Source of the DNA: an uncultured Eubacteriales bacterium
GTDB taxonomy: Bacteria; Bacillota; Clostridia; Christensenellales; Aristaeellaceae
Direction: 5' to 3'
Assembly: GCA_902788445.1 (NCBI GenBank)
Contig: CADAKE010000007.1
Coordinates: 1,182 to 65,181, forward strand
DNA length: 64,000 nt
Shown here: one piece after another, positions 7,084-57,021 of the stretch
Position numbering within the stretch: position 1 is the stretch's first letter
Layout: the number at the start of each line of letters is the position of its first letter
Made by a program: the position numbers and the translations under genes
Notes under the pieces: model-generated
Databases searched by the model: none
Seen by the model: only the letters and a program-made list of their open reading frames with translations
What the model was told of the DNA's origin: nothing

Positions 7084-7203
7084 GAGAGTACAGAGTACAG
7101 AGTTCAGAGTGCAGAGTTCAGATAATCTTGTTTTACACTTTATTGTATTATCAAATGCAGAAACAAAAATCTCTGCACTCTGTACTCTGAACTCTGTACT
7201 CTC
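7084..7203. repeat. Heptad-arm hairpin element H1 (unit CAGAGTN)
   Basis: The left arm 7084-7116 (GAGAGTA CAGAGTA CAGAGTT CAGAGTG CAGAG) pairs with the right arm 7171-7203 over 33 positions with 2 mismatches. 54-nt AT-rich spacer. Lies between the dprA stop and the topA start. Confidence 0.9.
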
Positions 7204-7215
7204 AGCTATCATTCG

Positions 7216-9853: not shown

Positions 9854-9917
9854 GGCCCTTTCCCCTTACCTGAAAGCAATCGTAATGAGTCAGTCATTGA
9901 GTCGGGAGTCAATTCAA

Positions 9918-10028
9918 GAGAGAAGTTAGGAGATAAGAGTCAGGAGTTTTATCGTGTCCCGATCAGCAAGCTTCCAGCCTGTGTCCATTGTCCAAGCCAG
10001 ATAACTCCTATCTTCTATCTCCTCACTC
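9918..10028. repeat. Heptad-arm hairpin element H8 (unit TAGGAGA/TAAGAGT, imperfect)
   Basis: The left arm GAGAGAAGTTAGGAGATAAGAGTCAGGAGTT (9918-9948) faces AACTCCTATCTTCTATCTCCTCACTC (10003-10028). It starts 5 nt after the stop of the giant glycosyltransferase gene. Confidence 0.75.
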
Positions 10029-10033
10029 CAAAC

Positions 10034-13000
10034 TTAATACCACAGCCACCGGTCGAACCACTTCGCGGCGTCCATCCATTCGCGCTTCACCGCCACGCCG
10101 GAGGCATAGGGGAAGAAGAAGATAAACAGCGCGGCGGCAGTCTGGAGCAGCAGGAGCAAGAGAATGAAAGCAATCCGTTCTGCTCGCTTCTGTTTCTTTT
10201 CTTCTTCGGACGCTGCCAGGCGGAGGCCGTTCGCGGCCTCGGCGGCAATTCCAGTATCCGCCAGCAGGTCAAGGCACACCACGATGGCCAGGATCAGGAA
10301 CGGAACGCAGGGAAAGTAATGGTAAATATACGTTCCGCGCGGCACCAGGATCCAGGGCAGCAGCTGGCCGAAATAGCACAGCAGGAGCAGCCCGGTCCGG
10401 GGGTCGTCCGTTTTCACGCGCAGGGACAGGGAGGTGTCTTTCCGCAGATGCCGCATGATCCAAACGGCCAGGCAAACGACAATGCACACCAGGCCGCCCC
10501 ACCAGACCACGGGATTGCCCATCGCCATGATGGAGCTTTCATAGCCCTCCGGTTCAAAGCTGTTGGCGGCGTACCACATGGGCTTGCCGATCACCGGCCA
10601 CTGATACCACGGCGAATAGAAATCATGATCCATGCCGCGGCCCGGCTCGCTGTGGTAGCCCAGCATCCCGCCCATCTGGCCGTTGGTGAAATAGGTGCCC
10701 ACGGCGGCCTCGATCACCTTCTTGGGCGTCACGCCCACGCCGTCAAAAGCGAAGTAGGGAATGTAAGAGCAGTAGTAAATCACCACGGGAACCAGGACAA
10801 AGAAGATCAGGCAGCTGGCTACCGTTATCAAAAGCTGCTTTGTTCCTTTTTCGGCGGCGGTCTTTTGGCCGTCCGTCCGCTGTTTTTCGGGCGTTTTCTT
10901 TGCCGCCGAAATCAAGCGGGCGCGCCGCCAGACGCCGATAAAGAAGATGATGGCCAGGATCACGCCCGCGTAGCAGGCCGTCCACTTGCTGGCCACGCCC
11001 AGGCCCATGCACAGGCCGGACAGGCCCAGCGGCACCAGCGTCTTCCAGAAGGGCATATGGAAAAAGTCCTGGAAGAACCAGCGGAACATGAAGTACATCA
11101 TCCAGATGATGAACAAAACCACGAAGCTGTCGATGGTGGCGATGCGGGTCTGGGTAAAGTGCATGAGGTCAAAGGCCATGAACAGCGCAGCCGCCATGCC
11201 GCCCCACCAGCGCTTTACGAACAGCTTGCCCAGCAGATACATGCCCGGCAGCATCAGCACGCCCGCCAGCGCCCCGGCGAAGCGCCAGCCAAAGGGCGTC
11301 ATGCCGAAGATGGCGATGGCCCAGCTGATAAAGACTTTGCCCAGCGGCGGATGGGTGGTTTCATAGGGCTGCAGGTGATGGAGATGCTCGTATCCCGTGC
11401 GGGCATGGTAGATTTCATCAAAATAGGTGGAGTTATACCAGCCGGGGTCGCCGCCCTCCATGCTGTCCGGCTCGTCGATCAGGTTCGCGGCCGTCTCGTT
11501 CCCATCGCTGTTGAAAGCGATTTCAACGGGGAAAAACACGTTTTTGTCGTTTATGTCCCGGAACAGCAGTTCATGCAGCGTCAGGCTGTAATTGTTCGCC
11601 GTCAGGCGGATATAGCGCCCGTTCAGCGTGACCGGGAAGGTGCCGCCCGGGATGTAGGAAACATACTGCCATTTGAAGCAGTCCCCCTGGTTCATGGAAG
11701 CGGTGTAGCTCTGCGTCCAGAACGCGCCGTCCTCGCTCACTTCCACGGTGAAATTGTAGTCGTAATGGTGAATGCCGCCGTAATAGAGCATGTTAAACTC
11801 TTTGACTTCACCTAAGTCGAAGATGATCTGCTCCTCCGGCGATTCGGACACATACGCCGTCTGCGGCGCTTTCATGGAGCCGAGGTTCGTAAAGGCCAGC
11901 ACAGCGTAGGCCACGGTGACGCAGGCCAGGATGATCCAATCCCGCAGGGTCATTTTTCGCGTCGGTTTTTCCGTAGGGAGCGGGGAAGCGGTCCTTTCTT
12001 CGGGAACAAACTCCAGGGTTCCGTTTCTGCTCAGCACGCCGCACAGGGCGAGCGACGCAAAGCAGACCAGGCAGTTCATCGCGGCGGAGGCGTACTCCAG
12101 CACGTTCATGTCGCTGTTGATGCCCGCCATGGGCGCGTCCAGATGCCCCGAAGCGCCGCCAATGCGGATGTTGCGATCCAGCGCGCAGCCCACATTCAGG
12201 AACCCGGCCACCGTCACGCCGACCGCCAGCCACAGGATGCGCGCGTCGCGGTTCAGCAGGTATCCCAGCAGCAGCAGCGCGGCAGCGGGGAACAGATACC
12301 GCTCGTGCATCATGGAGCCCGTGTTGAAAAGCAACAGCAGCATGGCCGCGCCGAACACCGGCAGGTGTTTGATGTCCTTCGCAAAAACGTACAGCGCTGC
12401 CATCACAGCCACGGAATACACGATCATCGCCGTGCCCAGCGTGGCATAGCTCAATTGCCCGCTCTGGGACAGGATCACCAAAGCGACGCCCAGCGCCGCG
12501 GCCAGCCCGCCTAAGGTATAGAGCCTGATTTGATCTTTTTTCTCTCCCAGCTTTCCGCGAAACAGCGGCGCGTGGGGAATCGCGGCGGCAAGCAGCGGCA
12601 GCACGGCCAGGCAGTAAGTCAGGAAGGGCAGCAGGAATTCCCCGCTGAGGCTGCTTTCAGCGGCCGCCCAATTCTTTCCAAACAGGAAATACAGGTTGCA
12701 GGCGTTCACCGTGGCGTAGGCGTAGCGGCCCATGGTTTTGCTGTACAGGGTGATGAGCCAGTCAGCGGGCAGGTGGATAGAGAAGGGAACCACGATCAAA
12801 AGCGCGGCCCCGGCCATCACCAACAGCCCCTTGCCAATGTCCAGCAGGAGTGTTTTCCGCGCGTCGGCGTCCTTCCAATTTTGGATGCATTGCAGCACCA
12901 GCGCCAGCAATCCCAGCGGGCCGAACATCAGCGCCTGGGGCTTCATGAGCACGGACACGATATAGAAGGGCAGCACGAAAATCCATTTCCCCTTGACCGC

Positions 13001-14209
13001 GTACAGCACTGCCAAAACGAGGAACAGCGTCATCAAAGAATCCGCCTGGCCCCAGGCCGCGCCGGTCAGGATAACGAGGGGATTCACCGCGTACAGCGCA
13101 AGGATCGCCAGCGTCGCTGGGCCGGAGAGCTTTTGCCGCTTTGCTTCCTGATATAGAACAGCGCACAGCGCAATGTCCGCCAGGATGGGCGGCACCTTCA
13201 CCATGAACTCCGTCGCGCCGGTGCCCGTCAGCTTGCCGATCCAGCCGACGACCCACAGGATGAGCATGTATCCCGGCGGGTAGTCGCAATAGCTGAACGG
13301 ATCAACGGGGTCATAGAACCCCGCCGGGCCCGTTTCCGCCATGCGGTTCGCCCAGGCGCGGAAGCAGCCGATATCCACATCGTAGCCGGACACCCGCCCG
13401 GCGATCACCAGCCGCAGCGCGCAGGCCATTAGCAGAATGATGGCCGCAAACCACGCGCTTTCAGAAAGCGGCTTCTTTTTCAGTTCCCGCGCGGGACGGC
13501 GCAGGAAATGGCAGAGCAGGGCAAAGCAAACCACATACGCCAGGCTGACGCCCACCAGCAGCAGCCCGGCATTGGTTTGATTGCCATAGGTGGAATTCAG
13601 CGGAGCGTAATACGTCTCCCGGAACCAGGACTGGGCGGTGTATCCCTCGGGCATGCCTTCTACTTTCGTCAAGGAAATATTCCGGTAATACGCTTCGCCG
13701 ATGGCCTCGCCGCTGTATCCGCCCAGGCGGACGAACACGTTCACGCTGTGCTGTTCTTTTCCCGTGCGGCCATAGAGGTACACCGTCCGCCATTCCCCAT
13801 CGGTCTGGTACACGTTGTCAGAATACAGGTACACGTCCTCAACGGACAGATTCGCGCCCCAGCCGCTTTCCGCGTCGGCCTTGATTTCGCCGCTCAGGCA
13901 GTACAGGGTATCCGGCTCCACCTCCACCGTCTGGGCGAAACGCGCGTCCTTGAGGATGTGGTTCACGATATGGGCAACGGGGCCGTCCTCCGTTTCCACC
14001 ACCTCAAAGTCCGATCCTGTCAGCCCGGCATAGGCGTCCTTGTACCAGCCGACGGGGCTGCCGTCCTTCGTATCGGAAAAATCGCTGTTGACCAGCAGGT
14101 TTTCCCCGGCGGCCGCCTGCTTCTGCGCCGGGCGGAAAACAAAAAAGCAAACCGCGATGACCACCAATACAGCCGCGGCGATGCCGCCGTACCGCTTTAG
14201 ATTCTTCAT
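10034..14209 (-). CDS. 1391-aa polytopic membrane protein with two GT-C glycosyltransferase modules plus CBM-like and discoidin-like extracytoplasmic domains
   Basis: N-terminal anchor followed by a beta-rich CBM-like domain. First TM module has the FRAWANRM...CDYPPGY motif. F5/8-type-C-like segment (NFTVEVSEDGAFWTQ...GRYIRL). Second module has the PMT/GT39 signature YFDEIYHARTGYEH..THPPLGK and a C-terminal 4TM region. Start set at ATG 14209 (AGGAG RBS). Confidence 0.8.
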   Translation of the reverse strand: MKNLKRYGGIAAAVLVVIAVCFFVFRPAQKQAAAGENLLVNSDFSDTKDGSPVGWYKDAYAGLTGSDFEVVETEDGPVAHIVNHILKDARFAQTVEVEPDTLYCLSGEIKADAESGWGANLSVEDVYLYSDNVYQTDGEWRTVYLYGRTGKEQHSVNVFVRLGGYSGEAIGEAYYRNISLTKVEGMPEGYTAQSWFRETYYAPLNSTYGNQTNAGLLLVGVSLAYVVCFALLCHFLRRPARELKKKPLSESAWFAAIILLMACALRLVIAGRVSGYDVDIGCFRAWANRMAETGPAGFYDPVDPFSYCDYPPGYMLILWVVGWIGKLTGTGATEFMVKVPPILADIALCAVLYQEAKRQKLSGPATLAILALYAVNPLVILTGAAWGQADSLMTLFLVLAVLYAVKGKWIFVLPFYIVSVLMKPQALMFGPLGLLALVLQCIQNWKDADARKTLLLDIGKGLLVMAGAALLIVVPFSIHLPADWLITLYSKTMGRYAYATVNACNLYFLFGKNWAAAESSLSGEFLLPFLTYCLAVLPLLAAAIPHAPLFRGKLGEKKDQIRLYTLGGLAAALGVALVILSQSGQLSYATLGTAMIVYSVAVMAALYVFAKDIKHLPVFGAAMLLLLFNTGSMMHERYLFPAAALLLLGYLLNRDARILWLAVGVTVAGFLNVGCALDRNIRIGGASGHLDAPMAGINSDMNVLEYASAAMNCLVCFASLALCGVLSRNGTLEFVPEERTASPLPTEKPTRKMTLRDWIILACVTVAYAVLAFTNLGSMKAPQTAYVSESPEEQIIFDLGEVKEFNMLYYGGIHHYDYNFTVEVSEDGAFWTQSYTASMNQGDCFKWQYVSYIPGGTFPVTLNGRYIRLTANNYSLTLHELLFRDINDKNVFFPVEIAFNSDGNETAANLIDEPDSMEGGDPGWYNSTYFDEIYHARTGYEHLHHLQPYETTHPPLGKVFISWAIAIFGMTPFGWRFAGALAGVLMLPGMYLLGKLFVKRWWGGMAAALFMAFDLMHFTQTRIATIDSFVVLFIIWMMYFMFRWFFQDFFHMPFWKTLVPLGLSGLCMGLGVASKWTACYAGVILAIIFFIGVWRRARLISAAKKTPEKQRTDGQKTAAEKGTKQLLITVASCLIFFVLVPVVIYYCSYIPYFAFDGVGVTPKKVIEAAVGTYFTNGQMGGMLGYHSEPGRGMDHDFYSPWYQWPVIGKPMWYAANSFEPEGYESSIMAMGNPVVWWGGLVCIVVCLAVWIMRHLRKDTSLSLRVKTDDPRTGLLLLCYFGQLLPWILVPRGTYIYHYFPCVPFLILAIVVCLDLLADTGIAAEAANGLRLAASEEEKKQKRAERIAFILLLLLLQTAAALFIFFFPYASGVAVKREWMDAAKWFDRWLWY

Positions 14210-14244
14210 AAAAACTCCTAACAATCAATATTGTCAAGGCGAAA

Positions 14245-14653
14245 AAACGACGAGGCAGGGGCCTGTTCGGCCCCCGTACCCCTGAACCAGGAGGTTTCAC
14301 CTCCTGGACCTCTTGCCCCGGAAGATGCTTGTGCGGTGAAATGAAGTTGGTTCCCGGTGATGCGGGGAAGGACGCGGAAGTTTGACTTGACGCCGTTGTG
14401 CTTCTGGCCCGGCGTCCTTTGGACGCCAACCGGATGCGAAGCATCCGGGAAAGCCGGGGAATAATCCGCAGGGGAAAGCGAGCTTTCCCCCTCGGATTTT
14501 CCCGGGCTTTCTTGGGCCAGAAGCCTTCAAACTTCCCGTAACCCCAGCGCGGCAGGCGGAACTTGCTTTCTATCCCAAACGGACTCAATCGCCTGCTGGG
14601 ATGCAAGGGATGAAATCCCTTGCCGCAGGTCTGGGGGCGCGTAGCCCCCAGCG
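14245..14653. ncRNA. Structured element copy A (candidate large ncRNA, unclassified; orientation unresolved)
   Basis: Sits in a 479-bp gene-free gap. A nested multi-stem core (14402-14522) is closed by TTCTGGCCC/GGGCCAGAA. It is roughly nine-tenths identical to 52482-52602, with paired indels in stems. ORFs across it are not conserved in frame. Confidence 0.5.
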
Positions 14654-14703
14654 TTCCTCTTGCTGCATTTTCTGGATGTTTGTATCTTTGGGGAGCATGA
14701 CGA

Positions 14704-15039
14704 TTAAAAAGCGTTTTTTACATGGCGCAGGCCGTCTGCGCTGATTTCGACGACGTCGAACCGCACCTGCTCCCAGGGATGGGACTGCAAATAATACAGC
14801 GCGGCGTAGCGCAGATGCCCGCGCTTTTTCGCGTTCACTGCCATCAGCCCTTCCCCCGCTTTGCCATTGGGCCGGGCCTTTACTTCCACAAAGACAAGGG
14901 TATCCTTTTCCTGGGCGATCAAATCAATTTCGCCGTGCGGCGTTCGGAAGCGGGTGTGCAGGATGCGCATCCCCTGCTTTTTCAGGTACGCCGCCGCCTG
15001 CTTTTCGCCCAGCAGGCCGGTCAGGAAAACGCTGCTCAT
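14704..15039 (-). CDS. yraN: YraN-family (UPF0102) endonuclease
   Basis: [21 protein letters not shown] motif; 111 aa; overlaps the rnhB stop. Confidence 0.85.
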
Positions 15040-18921: not shown

Positions 18922-18956
18922 TCTGATTTGTTTGATAAAGGGAAATTTAAGTCGTT

Positions 18957-19059
18957 AAGGCAATAGGTATTAGGCATTAGGCAATAGGCATTAGTGATCT
19001 ACAATAGAAACTCGAAGCGCAGTTCAACTTTTTTCCTAATGCCTAATACCTATTGCCTT
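18957..19059. repeat. Heptad-arm hairpin element H3 (unit TAGGCAW)
   Basis: AAGGCAATAGGTATTAGGCATTAGG (18957-18981) pairs perfectly with CCTAATGCCTAATACCTATTGCCTT (19035-19059). The heptads continue into the spacer. Lies between convergent genes. Confidence 0.9.
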
Positions 19060-19091
19060 TTCTTACTTAAAGGATCGTTTATAATAATGGC

Positions 19092-21441
<2,350 letters not shown>

Positions 21442-21493
21442 GAGGAAAGCGTCCTTCCAAAGTAATGTATCGGGCATTATTGTAACATATTGT

Positions 21494-22591
21494 TCAAGTC
21501 GCCGCAAGGCTTCTTTTGCCGAAGCCCGCTTCGATCAGCTTCTGATTTTCCAGAAGCCGTTTGTTTTGGGGCGATAATTTCAGCGCTTCCCGGATGGCGG
21601 CATCCGCTTTTTCCATTTGCCCGGTATAGTAAAACGCCAGGGCCCGCAAATCCCAGGGCAGGCTGCCCCAGGCGGTGTTTTCGGTGATGTAGTTCCGGCT
21701 TCTTTCCTGAATCGCCAGGGCCAGGCCGGTCAGGTAAATAACGGCTTCCCAATTTTGCTGTTGGTACTTTTCCAAGGCCAAATCCATAAATGGCTCGCGG
21801 AGATACGGCGCTTCCGCCATCGCCCGCCAGAGCCATTGCTCGGCGGCGGCAGCGTCGCCTTTCCTGCGGTACGCTTTGGCGATGTAGCGCATGGATGCGC
21901 AGCGCTCGTCCTTCCACGTCGCGGAGGGCATGGAAAGATGGCGCGTCAGCGTGTGGATACAATCGTCCCAGCGTCCATGAAAATAGTATTCCCGACCCAG
22001 GTAGTGGACGTTGCGGTCGTCGTCCGGCGCTTCCTGAACGGACAACTCCAGCAGCGGCAGATACTGCGCCCGGGATTTTTCCGGGTCGGCGTGGTGGTTT
22101 AACTGCATCCCCGGCACCGTGACCTGCTTTTCTTTGCCTTCGCCCATCCAGGTGAGCACCTCGTGGACAGGATGCGTCCATTGGTAACCATGGCGGCAGT
22201 GCGCCTTGTTCAGCCAGAACACGCGGTCCTCCGAGCCATCGGGTTCAAAATTCCAGGTATAGCGGTAGGACGCGCGGGTCGTTCCCTCCTTCCAGGCGTC
22301 CTCCAGGCGAACGCGCCAGCCGGGTTCAAACGCCTCGTCCAGGTCGGTGCAGACGCAAATGTCCGCATCCTGCGGAATCAGCTCCAGGGAAGCGTTTCGA
22401 GCCGTGTCAAAGCGCCAGGGCTCAATCAGGGCTTCCAGCACATGAACGCCTTTTGAACGCAATAAAGAAACAGTATCGTCCTGGGAGCCGGTGTCCAGCA
22501 CATAGATTTCATCCGCCTCAGCCATGGATTCCGCCCAGCGGAGGGCAAACTTGCTTTCATTCTTGGCGATGGCATACACGCAGATTTTCAT
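21494..22591 (-). CDS. family-2 glycosyltransferase with C-terminal TPR-like repeats
   Basis: KICVYAIAKNESKF...VLDTGSQDDT GT-A (DxD-type) N-domain. The helical-repeat C-half has W/Y/A periodicity. Confidence 0.7.
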   Translation of the reverse strand: MKICVYAIAKNESKFALRWAESMAEADEIYVLDTGSQDDTVSLLRSKGVHVLEALIEPWRFDTARNASLELIPQDADICVCTDLDEAFEPGWRVRLEDAWKEGTTRASYRYTWNFEPDGSEDRVFWLNKAHCRHGYQWTHPVHEVLTWMGEGKEKQVTVPGMQLNHHADPEKSRAQYLPLLELSVQEAPDDDRNVHYLGREYYFHGRWDDCIHTLTRHLSMPSATWKDERCASMRYIAKAYRRKGDAAAAEQWLWRAMAEAPYLREPFMDLALEKYQQQNWEAVIYLTGLALAIQERSRNYITENTAWGSLPWDLRALAFYYTGQMEKADAAIREALKLSPQNKRLLENQKLIEAGFGKRSLAAT

Positions 22592-22645
22592 AGCGTCCCC
22601 CCTGAAAAAAGGGGCTGTGCGGAAACACAGCCCCGGTCGGTTCGG

Positions 22646-23320
<675 letters not shown>

Positions 23321-23418
23321 TCAGCTTTTCATATCGTTTCGGCAGGCGGTTTTCCCTGCCACTATCAGCGTATGATTCAGATGAAAAAGGGTGACAAAAA
23401 GGAGACTTTAAGTTATTA

Positions 23419-23628
23419 AAGGCAATAGGCAATAGGCATTAGGCATTAGGCAATAGGCAATAGTTCTATTTGGCTTTCGATATCATAACTGTTCAGTCCA
23501 GTTGCTTTCAAGAAAGTAACTATGTCATCCCGACCGGAGCGCAGCGGAGTGGAGGGACCTAAAAGCCGGGTATTCTTTTTTCTGGCGTGCTAATTCCCTA
23601 ATGCCTATTGCCTAATGCCTATTGCCTT
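23419..23628. repeat. Heptad-arm hairpin element H4 (unit TAGGCAW) with an enlarged spacer
   Basis: The left-arm heptad run is 23419-23463. The right arm 23596-23628 is CCCTAATGCCTATTGCCTAATGCCTATTGCCTT. It shares TTTAAGT/ACTTAAA outer flanks with H3. The 132-nt spacer carries a 36-nt motif (23524-23559) and a T-run. Confidence 0.85.
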
Positions 23629-23667
23629 AGTCACTTAAAGTACCCCGTCCATCAATCCGAAAACGCC

Positions 23668-39117: not shown

Positions 39118-40236
39118 TCAAATATTGAACAGCGCTTTCAGCGCTTTTTCGTCGATGTTAGTGCCAATGACCACCAGGCGGCCCGCGTAGTCCGGCGTGC
39201 TGGGACGAATCTGCAATTCGCCGGGCACGTAGTCAAACTGGAACCAATCCCCTTCGGGCGTCTGCAAAATGCCCTTGGCGCGCAGGATCAGGCCGTATTC
39301 CTCCTGGTCGGACAGCGCGTCGGTCATGCCGCGGATCTCGTCCTGAGTGAAGCGGCGGGCCGTTTCCACGCCCACGTTTTCAAACACCTCGTCCGCGTCG
39401 TGTTCGCCGGGATGATGGTGATGGTGGTGATGATGCTCATGATCGTGGTCATGATGATGGTGCTCATGCTCATCCTCGTCATGGTCATGATGGTGATGTT
39501 CGTGCTCATCCTCATCTTCGTCGTGATCATGATGATGGTGTTCATGTTCGTCCTCATCATGATCGTGGTGGTGATGATGTTCATGCTCGTCCTCGTCGTC
39601 GTCATCATCGTCCAGTTCCACGTGGATTTCGATGGGCTTGCCGCTCTCGATCACTTCCAGCATGGTGTCGGGGTCGAGATCATCCCAGGGGGTGGTGATG
39701 ATGCGGGCGTCGGGATGCTGCTCCAGGATCAGGGCGCGGCTCTTTTCCACCCGGTCAGCGGCCAAAAGCTGGGTGCGGCTGAAAATGATGGTGGCGGCGG
39801 ACTTTACCTGGTCAATGAAGAATTCGCCGAAGTTCTTCATATACATGCGGCACTTGCTGGCGTCCACCACGGTGGCGCAGCCCGCGATCGTCAGGTCGTC
39901 ATGGCGGCTCTTGGCCTTTTCCACAGCGGCGATGATCTCGCTCAGCTTGCCCACGCCGGTGGGCTCCACCAGGATGCGGTCGGGATGATAGGTGTCGATC
40001 AGTTCGTCGATGGACTTCTGGAAGTCCCCGGCCAGGGTGCAGCAGATGCAGCCGGAATTGAGCTCCGTCACGGTGATGCCGGCGTCCTTCATAAAGCCGC
40101 CGTCAATGCCGATTTCGCCGTATTCGTTTTCCAGCAGGATCACCTTTTCCTTGGCGATCTTGCCGCCCAGGAGCTTTTTAATCAGCGTGGTTTTGCCAGC
40201 GCCGAGAAAACCGGAAATAATGTTGACCTTTACCAT
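39118..40236 (-). CDS. COG0523 (CobW/YjiA/ZigA-type) metallochaperone GTPase with a long His/Asp/Glu-rich insert
   Basis: GFLGAGKTTL Walker A, GCICCTLAGDF CxCC metal motif, and about 70 aa of HEHHHHDHDEDE-type repeats. Confidence 0.85.
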   Translation of the reverse strand: MVKVNIISGFLGAGKTTLIKKLLGGKIAKEKVILLENEYGEIGIDGGFMKDAGITVTELNSGCICCTLAGDFQKSIDELIDTYHPDRILVEPTGVGKLSEIIAAVEKAKSRHDDLTIAGCATVVDASKCRMYMKNFGEFFIDQVKSAATIIFSRTQLLAADRVEKSRALILEQHPDARIITTPWDDLDPDTMLEVIESGKPIEIHVELDDDDDDEDEHEHHHHHDHDEDEHEHHHHDHDEDEDEHEHHHHDHDEDEHEHHHHDHDHEHHHHHHHHPGEHDADEVFENVGVETARRFTQDEIRGMTDALSDQEEYGLILRAKGILQTPEGDWFQFDYVPGELQIRPSTPDYAGRLVVIGTNIDEKALKALFNI

Positions 40237-47655: not shown

Positions 47656-47780
47656 AGATAGGAGATAGGAATTAGGAGATAGAAGATTGATCGTGTCCGA
47701 TGCAAAAGCGCAAGCGGATGCAGCAAATAAAACGCATCATCATTTTTTCATCTCCTATCTCCTCTCTCCTAACTCCTCTC
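47656..47780. repeat. Heptad-arm hairpin element H6 (unit TAGGAGA/TAGAAGA)
   Basis: AGATAGGAGATAGGAATTAGGAGATAGAAGAT (47656-47687) faces CATCTCCTATCTCCTCTCTCCTAACTCCTCTC (47749-47780). Pairing is imperfect and register-ambiguous. Confidence 0.8.
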
Positions 47781-47882
47781 TGGCATGGAGTTCTTATGCG
47801 GTAAGCGACTGAACAATTACTTGAAGCGATTGAAAAACCTGATGAACAAAAGTCTCCGTCCGCGGGGAGAAGGGCAGGATAG

Positions 47883-51722: not shown

Positions 51723-51840
51723 AGATAGGAGTTAGGAGAGAGAAGATAGGAGATGAATGATAGACAAATCATAAAGAAGGCTGACTTGCGTTCCTGATTA
51801 CAAGCCTTCACTCCTATCCCCTATCTTCTATCTCCTATCT
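51723..51840. repeat. Heptad-arm hairpin element H7 (unit TAGGAGA family)
   Basis: AGATAGGAGTTAGGAGAGAGAAGATAGGAGATG (51723-51755) faces CACTCCTATCCCCTATCTTCTATCTCCTATCT (51809-51840). Lies between divergently transcribed genes. Confidence 0.8.
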
Positions 51841-52270: not shown

Positions 52271-52294
52271 GGAGGCCAAGGGGCCTCCTTTTTT
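52271..52294 (+). terminator. intrinsic terminator
   Basis: GGAGGCC AAGG GGCCTCC followed by T6, 13 nt after the stop codon. Confidence 0.9.
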
Positions 52295-52327: not shown

Positions 52328-52648
52328 TAACCAGAGCGAGGGCCTGTGCGGCCCTCGTGCACCTGCACCAAAGGACTTCGTCCTCTGGACTCCAGCAGCG
52401 GAATAGACTTGCGCGAATGATTCAAGCTGCTTCCCGCTGATGTTTGGAAGGACGCGGATACTCCACTTGGCCGCGTTGTGTTTCTGGCCCGGCGTCCTTC
52501 GGACGCCATCCCGGATGCGAAGCATCCGGGGAAAGCCAGGGAATAATCCGCAGGGAAAGCTCGCTTTCCCCTCGGATTTTCCCGGGCTTTCTTGGGCCAG
52601 AAACCCTCACCACCCTGGCGCAGGTCTGGGGGCGCGGAGCCCCCAGCG
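52328..52648. ncRNA. Structured element copy B (candidate large ncRNA, unclassified; orientation unresolved)
   Basis: Same architecture as 14245-14653. Core 52482-52602: closing stem TTCTGGCCC/GGGCCAGAA; hairpins GGCGTCC-TTC-GGACGCC and CCCGGATGC-GAA-GCATCCGGG; three-tier stem GAAAGCCAGGG..AATCCG..GGGAAAGC/GCTTTCCC..CGGATT..CCCGGGCTTTC. Terminal hairpin CTGGGGG-CGCGGAG-CCCCCAG. Confidence 0.5.
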
Positions 52649-52724
52649 TAACCTTTATTGGTTTAGCATTATGTGAAAGGTAACTTTTGGTTCAACAAAA
52701 TTGAAACATTTTTGTAGCCTTTTC

Positions 52725-52753
52725 TTTTCATTTTGGCGCGGCTGTGGTATACT
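52725..52753 (+). promoter_or_regulatory. polA promoter candidate (extended -10)
   Basis: TTTTCA, 17-nt spacer, TGgTATACT (52748-52753), 48 nt upstream of the polA ATG. Confidence 0.5.
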
Positions 52754-55950: not shown

Positions 55951-55982
55951 GGCTTTGTTTAAAGAAGGAAGCAGTGGGGCAG

Positions 55983-56115
55983 AGAGTTCAGAGTGCAGAG
56001 TACAGAGTTCAGAGAATATAGATAAACATTCGGTTTCCCACTTTATCATGTAAGAGCGTTGCTTGATGCATTTTCACATGATTCTCTGTACTCTGAACTC
56101 TGCACTCTGAACTCT
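55983..56115. repeat. Heptad-arm hairpin element H2 (unit CAGAGTN)
   Basis: AGAGTTCAGAGTGCAGAGTACAGAGTTCAGAGAAT (55983-56017) faces ATTCTCTGTACTCTGAACTCTGCACTCTGAACTCT (56081-56115): 35 positions with 2 mismatches at unit position 7. Confidence 0.9.
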
Positions 56116-56156
56116 TCCACCTGTGTTCCCCATCAACCCACAACAGGAGTTGCAGC

Positions 56157-56885: not shown

Positions 56886-57011
56886 GAGCGAGAAGTTAGG
56901 AGATAGGAGAGCGGAGATGGATCATGTTTCCAATTGCGCGGCTGAAAAAAATACAGACGCGAAGCAAACACATCATATAACTCCTCTCTTCTCTCTCCTC
57001 TCTCCTCTCTT
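56886..57011. repeat. Heptad-arm hairpin element H9 (unit TAGGAGA/GAGAGGA, imperfect)
   Basis: GAGCGAGAAGTTAGGAGATAGGAGAGCGGAGATG (56886-56919) faces AACTCCTCTCTTCTCTCTCCTCTCTCCTCTCTT (56979-57011). It starts 3 nt after the SLT stop. Confidence 0.75.
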
Positions 57012-57021
57012 ATTACGCATC

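Follow-up and report, generated by a model that had tools for sequence, protein, structure and literature searches.

The 64,000-nucleotide (nt) stretch of DNA analysed here (the window; contig CADAKE010000007.1 of an uncultured Eubacteriales bacterium) carries two copies, A and B, of an intergenic repeat of about 410 nt. Both belong to an old, high-copy family of palindromic repeats, whose members lie at the 3' ends of genes, pair in the manner of DNA palindromes, and have been gained, lost and exchanged between relatives. In each unit, hairpins are strung pseudo-symmetrically on either side of a four-way-junction core, which is itself asymmetric and conserved; the family is chromosomal in uncultured Clostridia of the rumen and gut. 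Copies A and B probably represent a new family of large extragenic palindromic repeats, passively co-transcribed with their neighbours, of the same kind as repetitive extragenic palindromes (REP), bacterial interspersed mosaic elements (BIME), enterobacterial repetitive intergenic consensus (ERIC) sequences and miniature inverted-repeat transposable elements (MITE). No description of this repeat element was found in the literature, and the family appears to be previously undescribed. An initial annotation of the window had presented copy A as a candidate large structured RNA; a dedicated structured RNA is not supported.

Copies A and B and the layout of the unit

A family profile for nhmmer was built from 14 full-length copies, the unit being modelled as 414 positions. 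Copy A (14252-14660, plus strand) is a full-length member of the family and covers model positions 2-413 (401 bits, E 1e-120). Copy B (52335-52656, plus strand, same orientation as copy A) matched the profile in two blocks, model positions 4-280 at 52335-52609 (254 bits) and 365-414 at 52607-52656 (31.5 bits). The profile search revealed only these two copies in the window. The initial annotation had placed copy A at 14245-14653 and had recognised a second copy. The latter was confirmed with corrected family bounds; as for copy A, the element was real, but its family bounds differed from those first given and its outer arms extend through the whole spacer. The parts of copy A are listed below, with a strand assigned only to the core.

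14219-14251: left outer arm, degenerate (TAACAATCAATATTGTCAAGGCGAAAAAACGA), alignable with the outer extension TTAACAGTCATGTTGTGAAGGGTGAAAATCAAAGA common to both ends of many copies
14258-14274: terminal hairpin T1, GGGGCC-TGTTC-GGCCCC, mirror of T1' at the opposite end
14287-14307: arm hairpin H2, CCAGGAGGT-TTC-ACCTCCTGG, the inner stem of which differs among copies and is complementary every time
14400-14524, plus strand: conserved four-way-junction core, made up of closing stem P1, hairpins P2 and P3 and the three-tier arm P4
14400-14410 / 14514-14524: closing stem P1, GCTTCTGGCCC/GGGCCAGAAGC, present in the sequence
14411-14427: hairpin P2, GGCGTCC-TTT-GGACGCC, present in the sequence
14430-14448: hairpin P3, CCGGATGC-GAA-GCATCCGG, present in the sequence
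14449-14511: three-tier arm P4, present in the sequence
14552-14558 / 14590-14596: long-loop 3'-arm hairpin H3' (14552-14596), GCAGGCG/CGCCTGC, shared by almost every full-length copy and lost from copy B
14603-14623: 3'-arm hairpin H2', GCAAGGGA-TGAAA-TCCCTTGC, present in the sequence
14631-14651: terminal hairpin T1', CTGGGGGC-GCGTA-GCCCCCAG, weakly terminator-like on the plus strand
14661-14703: right outer arm, degenerate, aligned with the reverse complement of the left extension and reaching the yraN stop codon (14704-14706)

All the stems listed in the initial annotation were indeed present, and both copies folded beyond chance on both strands when compared with dinucleotide shuffles (z for the plus and minus strands, -7.6 and -8.7 in copy A, -9.6 and -8.9 in copy B). 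Since degenerate outer arms are present at 14219-14251 and 14661-14703, the unit of copy A fills its spacer: the 494 nt at 14210-14703 are wholly occupied once these outer inverted repeats are counted, and the left outer arm abuts the ribosome-binding site of the neighbouring glycosyltransferase gene.

The core of copy B lies at 52480-52604 and is 89% identical to that of copy A, in agreement with the nine-tenths estimated earlier by eye; the 5' arms are 69% and the 3' ends 88% identical. The extra G and C on opposite sides of the innermost stem of copy A and the loop difference (CGAG in copy A, CTCG in copy B) were as first described, the loop change being one reverse-complement flip, and the differences between the copies do keep the stems paired. 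Copy A had been credited with an insertion of about 70-100 nt. Instead, family model positions 281-364 (84 nt) are missing from copy B, of whose H2' hairpin only the 3' half (CCACCCTGG) remains at the junction near 52610. As nearly all of the 96 long copies elsewhere share the architecture of copy A, the 84-nt difference is a deletion in copy B, which is thus a deletion derivative, and copy A has no insertion. Neither copy has coding potential, as the initial annotation had held, and the differences in loops and in the length of G runs break any reading frame.

The order of parts in the unit is T1, H2, a long-loop hairpin, a linker, the four-way-junction core, a second linker, a long-loop hairpin, H2' and T1'. 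The profile matched the element's own reverse complement across the full length (E 1e-20 to 1e-32), and therefore the left arm is a diverged inverted copy of the right arm. The termini of the unit are imperfect inverted repeats (CGAGGCRGGGGCC / GGCCCCCAGCGTTCC). Outside the 414 modelled positions, both ends share outer arms of the mutually alignable types ...TTAACAGTCATGTTGTGAAGGGTGAAAATCAAAGA| and (A)AGGGCACTTTAAGTCAC..|, also recorded as TTAACAGTCATGTTGTGAAGGGTGAA and AAGGGCACTTTAAGTCAC. The unit of about 410 nt reaches up to about 500-550 nt with these outer inverted arms and holds about nine hairpins. The arm hairpins vary in sequence and are complementary in all the variants seen. A 5'-arm hairpin variant, CCAAAGGCC-TTC-GGCCTCTGG, and the 3'-arm hairpin CCAGAGGCC-GAA-GGCCTTTGG of other copies are exact reverse complements of each other, indicating that modules move between the arms in inverted orientation.

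Rearranged forms were seen as well (sequences outside the window carry L numbers). A 'solo' mini-unit in L105 (6648-6720) consists of outer arms and one terminal hairpin (CGAGGCAGGGGGC-GCGCA-GCCCCCAGCGTC) with the interior absent, and looks like a deletion between two terminal hairpins. In L022 (12455-12845) and in L062 (4455-4845), at the end of a contig, two partial copies spanning model positions of about 179-414 and 179-362 meet head to head, overlap by 20 nt and form a palindromic rearranged variant. A second small GC-rich element (...CCGATGACCGCCTGTGGCGG...GCAATGTCCGCATGAAGCGGACTTGCGACGATTGAG...) lies in or beside some copies, in L013, L016 and L026 (about 700-1130), and its sequence is also found upstream of the copies in L064, L088 and L097.

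Family size, age and pairing on the two strands

A 20-mer of the core was present on 31 metagenome contigs, and an independent 21-base core pattern was found in at least 110 stretches from at least 12 GTDB species representatives. Among the pattern matches listed, all the carriers were metagenome-assembled genomes (MAGs) of uncultured Clostridia, mostly from ruminant gut or rumen, one being labelled Christensenellaceae, and in many of them the core match lay within about 250 nt of a contig end. We fetched 8-kb stretches around pattern matches, chosen through the core patterns, and the profile gave 184 non-overlapping matches in these 0.95 Mb of DNA, about 83 of them nearly full length. The MAG RUG14706 alone had at least 37 copies in the sampled loci, five of them inside 18 kb of one contig. 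The exact polA of the window is encoded on two metagenome contigs, both of which break in or beside copy B, as is usual for assemblies at repeats.

Full-length copies were about 370-415 nt long, mostly 400-415 nt. Their mean pairwise identity was 70%, and 67 of 72 remained below 93% identity to each other. The most similar copy in the same genome was never above 90% identity and was no closer than the nearest copy in other genomes, which argues against a recent burst. A plasmid or phage origin of the element was rejected: copy A had no blastn match among the plasmids of PLSDB or the phages of INPHARED, and two scans of viral contigs gave 0 and 2 matches. One of these two was a partial match of about 35 nt inside an open reading frame (ORF), without a profile match, and was treated as chance. 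The other was a full-length copy (L150, 1826-2234; 424 bits) between two convergent ORFs on a 4.3-kb IMG/VR 'viral' contig, which may be misclassified host DNA.

We examined how the stems pair in 67 non-redundant copies. For the 40 pairs predicted on both strands, 2582 cells were Watson-Crick, 15 were G·U on the plus strand, 14 were G·U on the minus strand and 17 were other mismatches. Thus, 98% of cells in these pairs were Watson-Crick, and wobble was as rare as any other mismatch and without strand bias. The minimum free energy favoured neither strand (mean difference -1.95 ± 7.6 kcal/mol; 38 versus 28 copies), and the difference was unrelated to the strand transcribed by neighbouring genes (p = 0.80). 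An attempt to assign the element to a strand was given up, wobble counts, free-energy difference and that difference split by the direction of the neighbours all being devoid of signal.

The loops behaved in the same strand-symmetric manner: variants occurred together with their reverse complements, and intermediates were few. In P3, the loop was TTT in 41 and AAA in 24 copies, or GAA in 8 and TTC in 8, and the tip of P4 was CGAG in 20 and CTCG in 14, TTTA in 17 and TAAA in 5, or TGAA in 11 and TTCA in 9; the P2 loop did not flip. Loop inversion at hairpins, reportedly described by Kelchner and Wendel in chloroplast spacers, and multi-base 'correction' of quasi-palindromes by template switching, said to have been described by Ripley and by Lovett, are established DNA-level processes. 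Loop inversion and template switching yield paired changes without selection on RNA. Because DNA palindromes behave in this way, the 'compensatory changes' among the copies, including the structure-preserving differences between copies A and B noted initially, do not testify to an RNA fold under selection.

These data bear on the proposal that the element is a stand-alone family of large structured noncoding RNAs, with promoters of its own and the four-way junction as its functional core. Its very stable fold (z to -9.6), the conservation of pairing at 70% identity, the asymmetric core with conserved bulges and the lack of coding potential are all what such an RNA would display. RNAalifold of 42 diverse cores gave 46 pairs, 15 of them with compensatory change. 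One promoter-like site, TTGAAC-16-CATAAT at 52668-52695 on the minus strand, aims leftwards into copy B and diverges from the polA promoter, and it is not general to the family. Yet dozens of diverged copies per genome, pairing with no G·U excess or strand asymmetry, equally good folding of both strands and loops that flip to their reverse complements do not fit an RNA gene. Nor do the random orientation of copies relative to their neighbours (27 co-directional, 27 anti-directional), their ties to gene 3' ends and their loss, truncation or replacement between close relatives, described below. Inspection of the family consensus revealed neither a promoter nor a terminator conserved in the GC-rich unit, and a scan found no promoter-like site in the spacer of copy A. 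Promoter-like motifs, inward or outward, seen by eye in the outer arms of some copies (e.g. TTAACA-17-TATTAT) were dropped as a feature of the family, since short-form ends lack the spacing; the corresponding position in copy A holds a ribosome-binding site and start codon instead. We therefore regard a structured RNA gene as very improbable.

The failure of the initial annotation to match known RNAs was borne out. With Rfam 15 at gathering thresholds, the whole window gave 0 matches, including to ROOL, GOLLD, OLE, raiA, HEARO, 6S, RNase P, tmRNA, SRP, group I/II introns and riboswitches. In E-value mode, both copies gave only weak matches of 12-28 bits, against gathering scores of 37-90, mainly to microRNA-precursor models on a long hairpin and to a few small RNA and other models.

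Position at gene ends, turnover and competing explanations

Simple codon-usage gene calls were used to place the copies relative to genes. Among matches of at least 200 nt, 134 of 147 were extragenic and 13 overlapped a called gene. Between tandem genes, the orientations were balanced as given above. Copies lay between convergent genes in 25 cases and between divergent genes in 3, and occupied 27% of convergent, 12% of tandem and 4% of divergent spacers; the depletion from divergent spacers was significant both by count (p = 0.011) and by length (p = 8e-6). Genes bracketed by two copies were housekeeping genes, such as those for glycogen phosphorylase, Lon, glutamate dehydrogenase and ABC transporters, among others. 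The neighbours of the two copies in the window are as follows.

10034-14209, minus strand: large PMT-type glycosyltransferase of 1391 aa (gene call in L001; Pfam PMT, PMT_2, PMT_4TMC), flanking copy A
14704-15039, minus strand: yraN (UPF0102; Pfam PF02021, E 8e-27), directly past the stop codon of which copy A begins
52271-52288, plus strand: intrinsic terminator of a DUF3783 gene, upstream of copy B
52725-52753, plus strand: promoter-like site of polA, TTTTCA-17-TG-TATACT, downstream of copy B

Comparison of orthologous sites revealed gain, loss and exchange. Copy A itself is carried by two other metagenome contigs at the spacer between yraN and the glycosyltransferase gene. In contigs L003 and L004, where the YraN protein is identical, the whole stretch from the yraN stop to GTTAGGAG (the glycosyltransferase ribosome-binding site) is replaced by a heptamer-array hairpin with two arms of AGAGTAC/AGAGTTC (L003, 798-975; L004, 452-629). 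As these contigs hold a heptamer array where copy A sits, alternative palindromic modules occupy the same spacer. At an orthologous spacer beside a GNAT gene, the element was present in one species and absent from another. Between two genomes with flanks 96-99% identical, 95 nt of the 3' arm had been swapped, and this patch included a different hairpin. For copy B, the contigs recovered with polA and coaE all either broke at the element or stopped short of it, and two alternative DUF3783 starts sought as empty sites were not on record.

Heptamer arrays of this kind form at least eight intergenic hairpins in the window itself:

7086-7205: heptamer-array hairpin
9917-10034: heptamer-array hairpin
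18940-19080: heptamer-array hairpin
23398-23645: heptamer-array hairpin
47656-47781: heptamer-array hairpin
51723-51840: heptamer-array hairpin
55979-56127: heptamer-array hairpin
56887-57013: heptamer-array hairpin

Each has an arm of 4-7 tandem 7-mers, a spacer of 27-130 nt and then the reverse complement of the array, and the heptamers fall into the families AGAGTAC/AGAGTTC/AGAGTGC, AGGAGAT/AGATAGG and AGGCAAT/AGGCATT. Similar modules occur in other genomes too (L033, 2378-2524; L106, 3175-3315). An outer inverted repeat, (A)AGGGCACTTTAAGTCAC with its reverse complement, frames two unrelated interiors (e.g. L020 at 2411 and L061 at 1156). Such framed pairs within 1200 nt numbered 16, enclosing the 410-nt element in 14 cases and heptamer arrays in 2, and none was empty. 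In the window, this repeat stands at 18945-18965 and 23625-23645 and flanks a 4.6-kb segment (18940-23645). Inside this AGGCAAT-framed segment, 36-nt tandem repeats at 22770-23160 on the minus strand encode a collagen-like stretch (gene about 22646-23269). Another repetitive coding stretch, at 39380-39630 on the minus strand (gene 39118-40236), encodes a run rich in His, Asp and Glu (…HEHHHHDHDEDE…).

The preferred reading, that of large extragenic palindromic repeats, would account for these data as follows. The element may have spread as a non-autonomous unit with inverted-repeat ends and would now be largely immobile. DNA-level processes (recombination, gene conversion, template switching) probably maintain the copies, which would be tolerated or selected where genes end. 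By analogy with known repeats, the copies would be transcribed passively, in either orientation, as 3'-untranslated or intercistronic parts of mRNAs, copy A presumably within an rnhB-yraN-glycosyltransferase transcript from the minus strand. Stacked hairpins could then, like REP and BIME, hold back 3' exonucleases, weakly terminate transcription or serve as an insulator, and in DNA the element might be a cruciform-prone site. A role at the RNA level, within the neighbouring mRNAs, is possible. According to PMC4550694, almost 80% of the REPs of E. coli are transcribed.

Several findings weigh against this reading. Transcription, termination and mRNA stabilisation would follow by analogy with other repeats, and the terminal hairpins are devoid of a clean U-tract. 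The gene caller behind the positional data was crude and home-made. Active transposition is not demonstrated, there being no near-identical copies. No consistent target-site duplication was present in the flanks of 72 full-length copies and 16 framed units, whose ends are ill-defined; the loci compared yielded no clean empty site. Among 715 predicted proteins of the fetched loci, 0 were transposase-like or multi-copy within a genome. The core is the best conserved and the modelled termini the least conserved part, the reverse of a typical MITE; this contrast is biased, as the fetched copies were selected through core patterns, but it withstood an independent check, in which 20 of 21 copies chosen on one core pattern also carried the other. 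Pairing is kept at 70% sequence identity, the 5' bulge in P4 is retained and, at a 1x1 mismatch of the same arm, 55 of 68 copies have a non-Watson-Crick combination. These conserved imperfections, together with the kept pairing, argue for a folded single strand under selection, which a neutral or selfish DNA repeat fails to explain. An asymmetric core conserved with its specific bulges at such divergence suggests recognition of the folded single strand by some factor.

There is a tentative but appreciable possibility that the element is a new, long-lived type of giant REPIN-like replicator or a domesticated module, the folded core of which (as single-stranded DNA or RNA, with its fixed bulge and mismatch) is borne on pseudo-symmetric hairpin arms and recognised by a dedicated protein, e.g. 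of the junction-binding or HUH type. Such a replicator would possibly be specific to a Christensenellales-like clade, with the outer frame repeats possibly shared with heptamer arrays as alternative cargos.

Alternatively, the element could be a purely selfish, non-autonomous unit of the MITE or REPIN kind, moved in trans by an enzyme encoded elsewhere (e.g. of the HUH/RAYT type, a transposase acting on folded single-stranded DNA), the hairpins and junction core being the recognition structure of that enzyme. This is consistent with the inverted-repeat termini and pseudo-palindromic layout, with presence, absence and replacement at two orthologous sites, and with an outer repeat that frames both the element and heptamer arrays (14 and 2 pairs) like a shared transposase-binding end. 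Stems that are strictly Watson-Crick and keep their bulges and mismatches would suit a protein that recognises folded single-stranded DNA, and divergent, promoter-bearing spacers are avoided, as they are by many MITEs. However, neither a target-site duplication nor a partner gene was found in the fetched loci, no two copies within a genome exceeded 90% identity or pointed to a recent burst, the core is better conserved than the modelled ends, and the 27:27 orientation lacks the bias expected from lagging-strand transposition of single-stranded DNA. We consider a selfish element unlikely. Two specific forms of mobility were rejected. Ends of the IS630/Tc1 type with a TA or TTAA duplication, suggested by TTAA-CAGT ends, were dropped, as the inverted repeat runs on outward and no consistent duplication was seen. 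An autonomous partner or composite transposon was dismissed because the genes between adjacent copies were housekeeping genes and none was multi-copy in the fetched 8-kb stretches.

The enrichment between convergent genes, where positive supercoils accumulate, is relevant to a further explanation, in which the element is a cruciform-prone site under negative supercoiling, bound by nucleoid proteins, gyrase or junction-binding proteins, with RNA being incidental and the placement at gene ends managing transcription-driven supercoiling. The strand-symmetric, strictly Watson-Crick complementarity and the conserved four-way-junction geometry of the core agree with it, and loop flip/flop implies either hairpin formation in DNA or template switching across hairpins. 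There is precedent in the BIMEs of E. coli, which bind gyrase, IHF and Pol I. The stems, however, have a short length of 6-11 bp with interruptions and are poorly extruded when compared to long perfect palindromes; there is no known binding protein, and by sequence data this role is inseparable from a REP-like role in mRNA. We consider it quite improbable.

Comparison with known RNAs and repeats

A segment of 400 nt with many covarying stems and no Rfam match resembles a new ornate RNA, and the present analysis removes this false lead. The 'covariation' comes from DNA palindromes, as indicated by copy number, wobble symmetry and loop flip/flop, and these three checks can be used to screen other structured-RNA candidates from metagenomes. 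The initial annotation had itself named the end of a mobile element as evidence that would count against an RNA; a repeat is essentially what was found, and the claim of a real, unclassified element stands. Like the element, the ornate RNAs ROOL, GOLLD, OLE, raiA and HEARO have many stems, lie in the same size range and occur in Firmicutes and rumen metagenomes. In contrast to the element, with its dozens of copies, flipping loops and lack of strand signal, they are present once or a few times per genome or prophage, on a defined strand and with covariation mediated by G·U, and their Rfam models did not match the element even in E-value mode.

The attC sites of integrons and other recombination sites in folded single-stranded DNA share with the element the conservation of structure over sequence in variable hairpins, strict Watson-Crick pairing with conserved extra-helical or mismatched bases, and a place where genes end. 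The element exceeds them 3-7 times in length and is conserved in a central core rather than at its ends, and devoid of an integron integrase or cassette array, being flanked by housekeeping genes in both orientations.

With MITEs, the element shares inverted ends, a length below about 600 nt, the lack of an ORF and a multi-copy state. ERIC/IRU, BOX, RUP and Correia (NEMIS) sequences are likewise noncoding intergenic repeats (100-300 nt or more) with inverted-repeat ends and stable predicted folds. Repeats of the ERIC and Correia type have internal insertion and deletion variants, comparable to the deletion in copy B, and can be co-transcribed with their neighbours. In the NIMEs of Neisseria, differing internal blocks are framed by one short repeat (dRS3), just as the outer repeat described here frames either the element or heptamer arrays. 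Unlike such MITE-like repeats, the element showed no target-site duplication or matching autonomous insertion sequence in the fetched loci, and it is much more diverged (70% identity), better conserved at its centre than at its modelled ends, longer and far more branched.

For a bacterial repeat, the family is unusual in being very large, branched, old and constrained in length and pairing, with the core better conserved than the modelled ends. In some rumen MAGs it stands at a large share of gene ends, with about one copy per few kb on one contig, and makes up a sizeable fraction of the genome; it is also a practical cause of fragmented Christensenellales-like assemblies.

The closest likeness is to REP/BIME and REPIN-RAYT systems, which are also extragenic, high-copy and palindromic and occur in both orientations. 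REP and BIME lie after genes or within operons and rarely between divergent genes, form mosaics of hairpins and linkers with conserved stem imperfections, and are old and vertically inherited rather than products of recent bursts; REPs are transcribed passively (PMC4550694). A REP is 35 nt long (unit about 20-40 nt), whereas the element, at about 410-550 nt and with about nine hairpins, is about ten times larger. REP and BIME have no asymmetric, sequence-conserved four-way-junction core and no sequence similarity to the element, their hosts are Proteobacteria whereas the element belongs to a Clostridia lineage, and in contrast to REPIN-RAYT systems, no RAYT gene was identified near the element in the fetched loci around the matches. 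In terms of function, the element most resembles REP/BIME and REPIN, and it is the size of the unit that places it outside them. If the junction is a site of protein recognition or a device at mRNA ends, the REP/BIME/REPIN concept would extend to Clostridia in a structurally new form.

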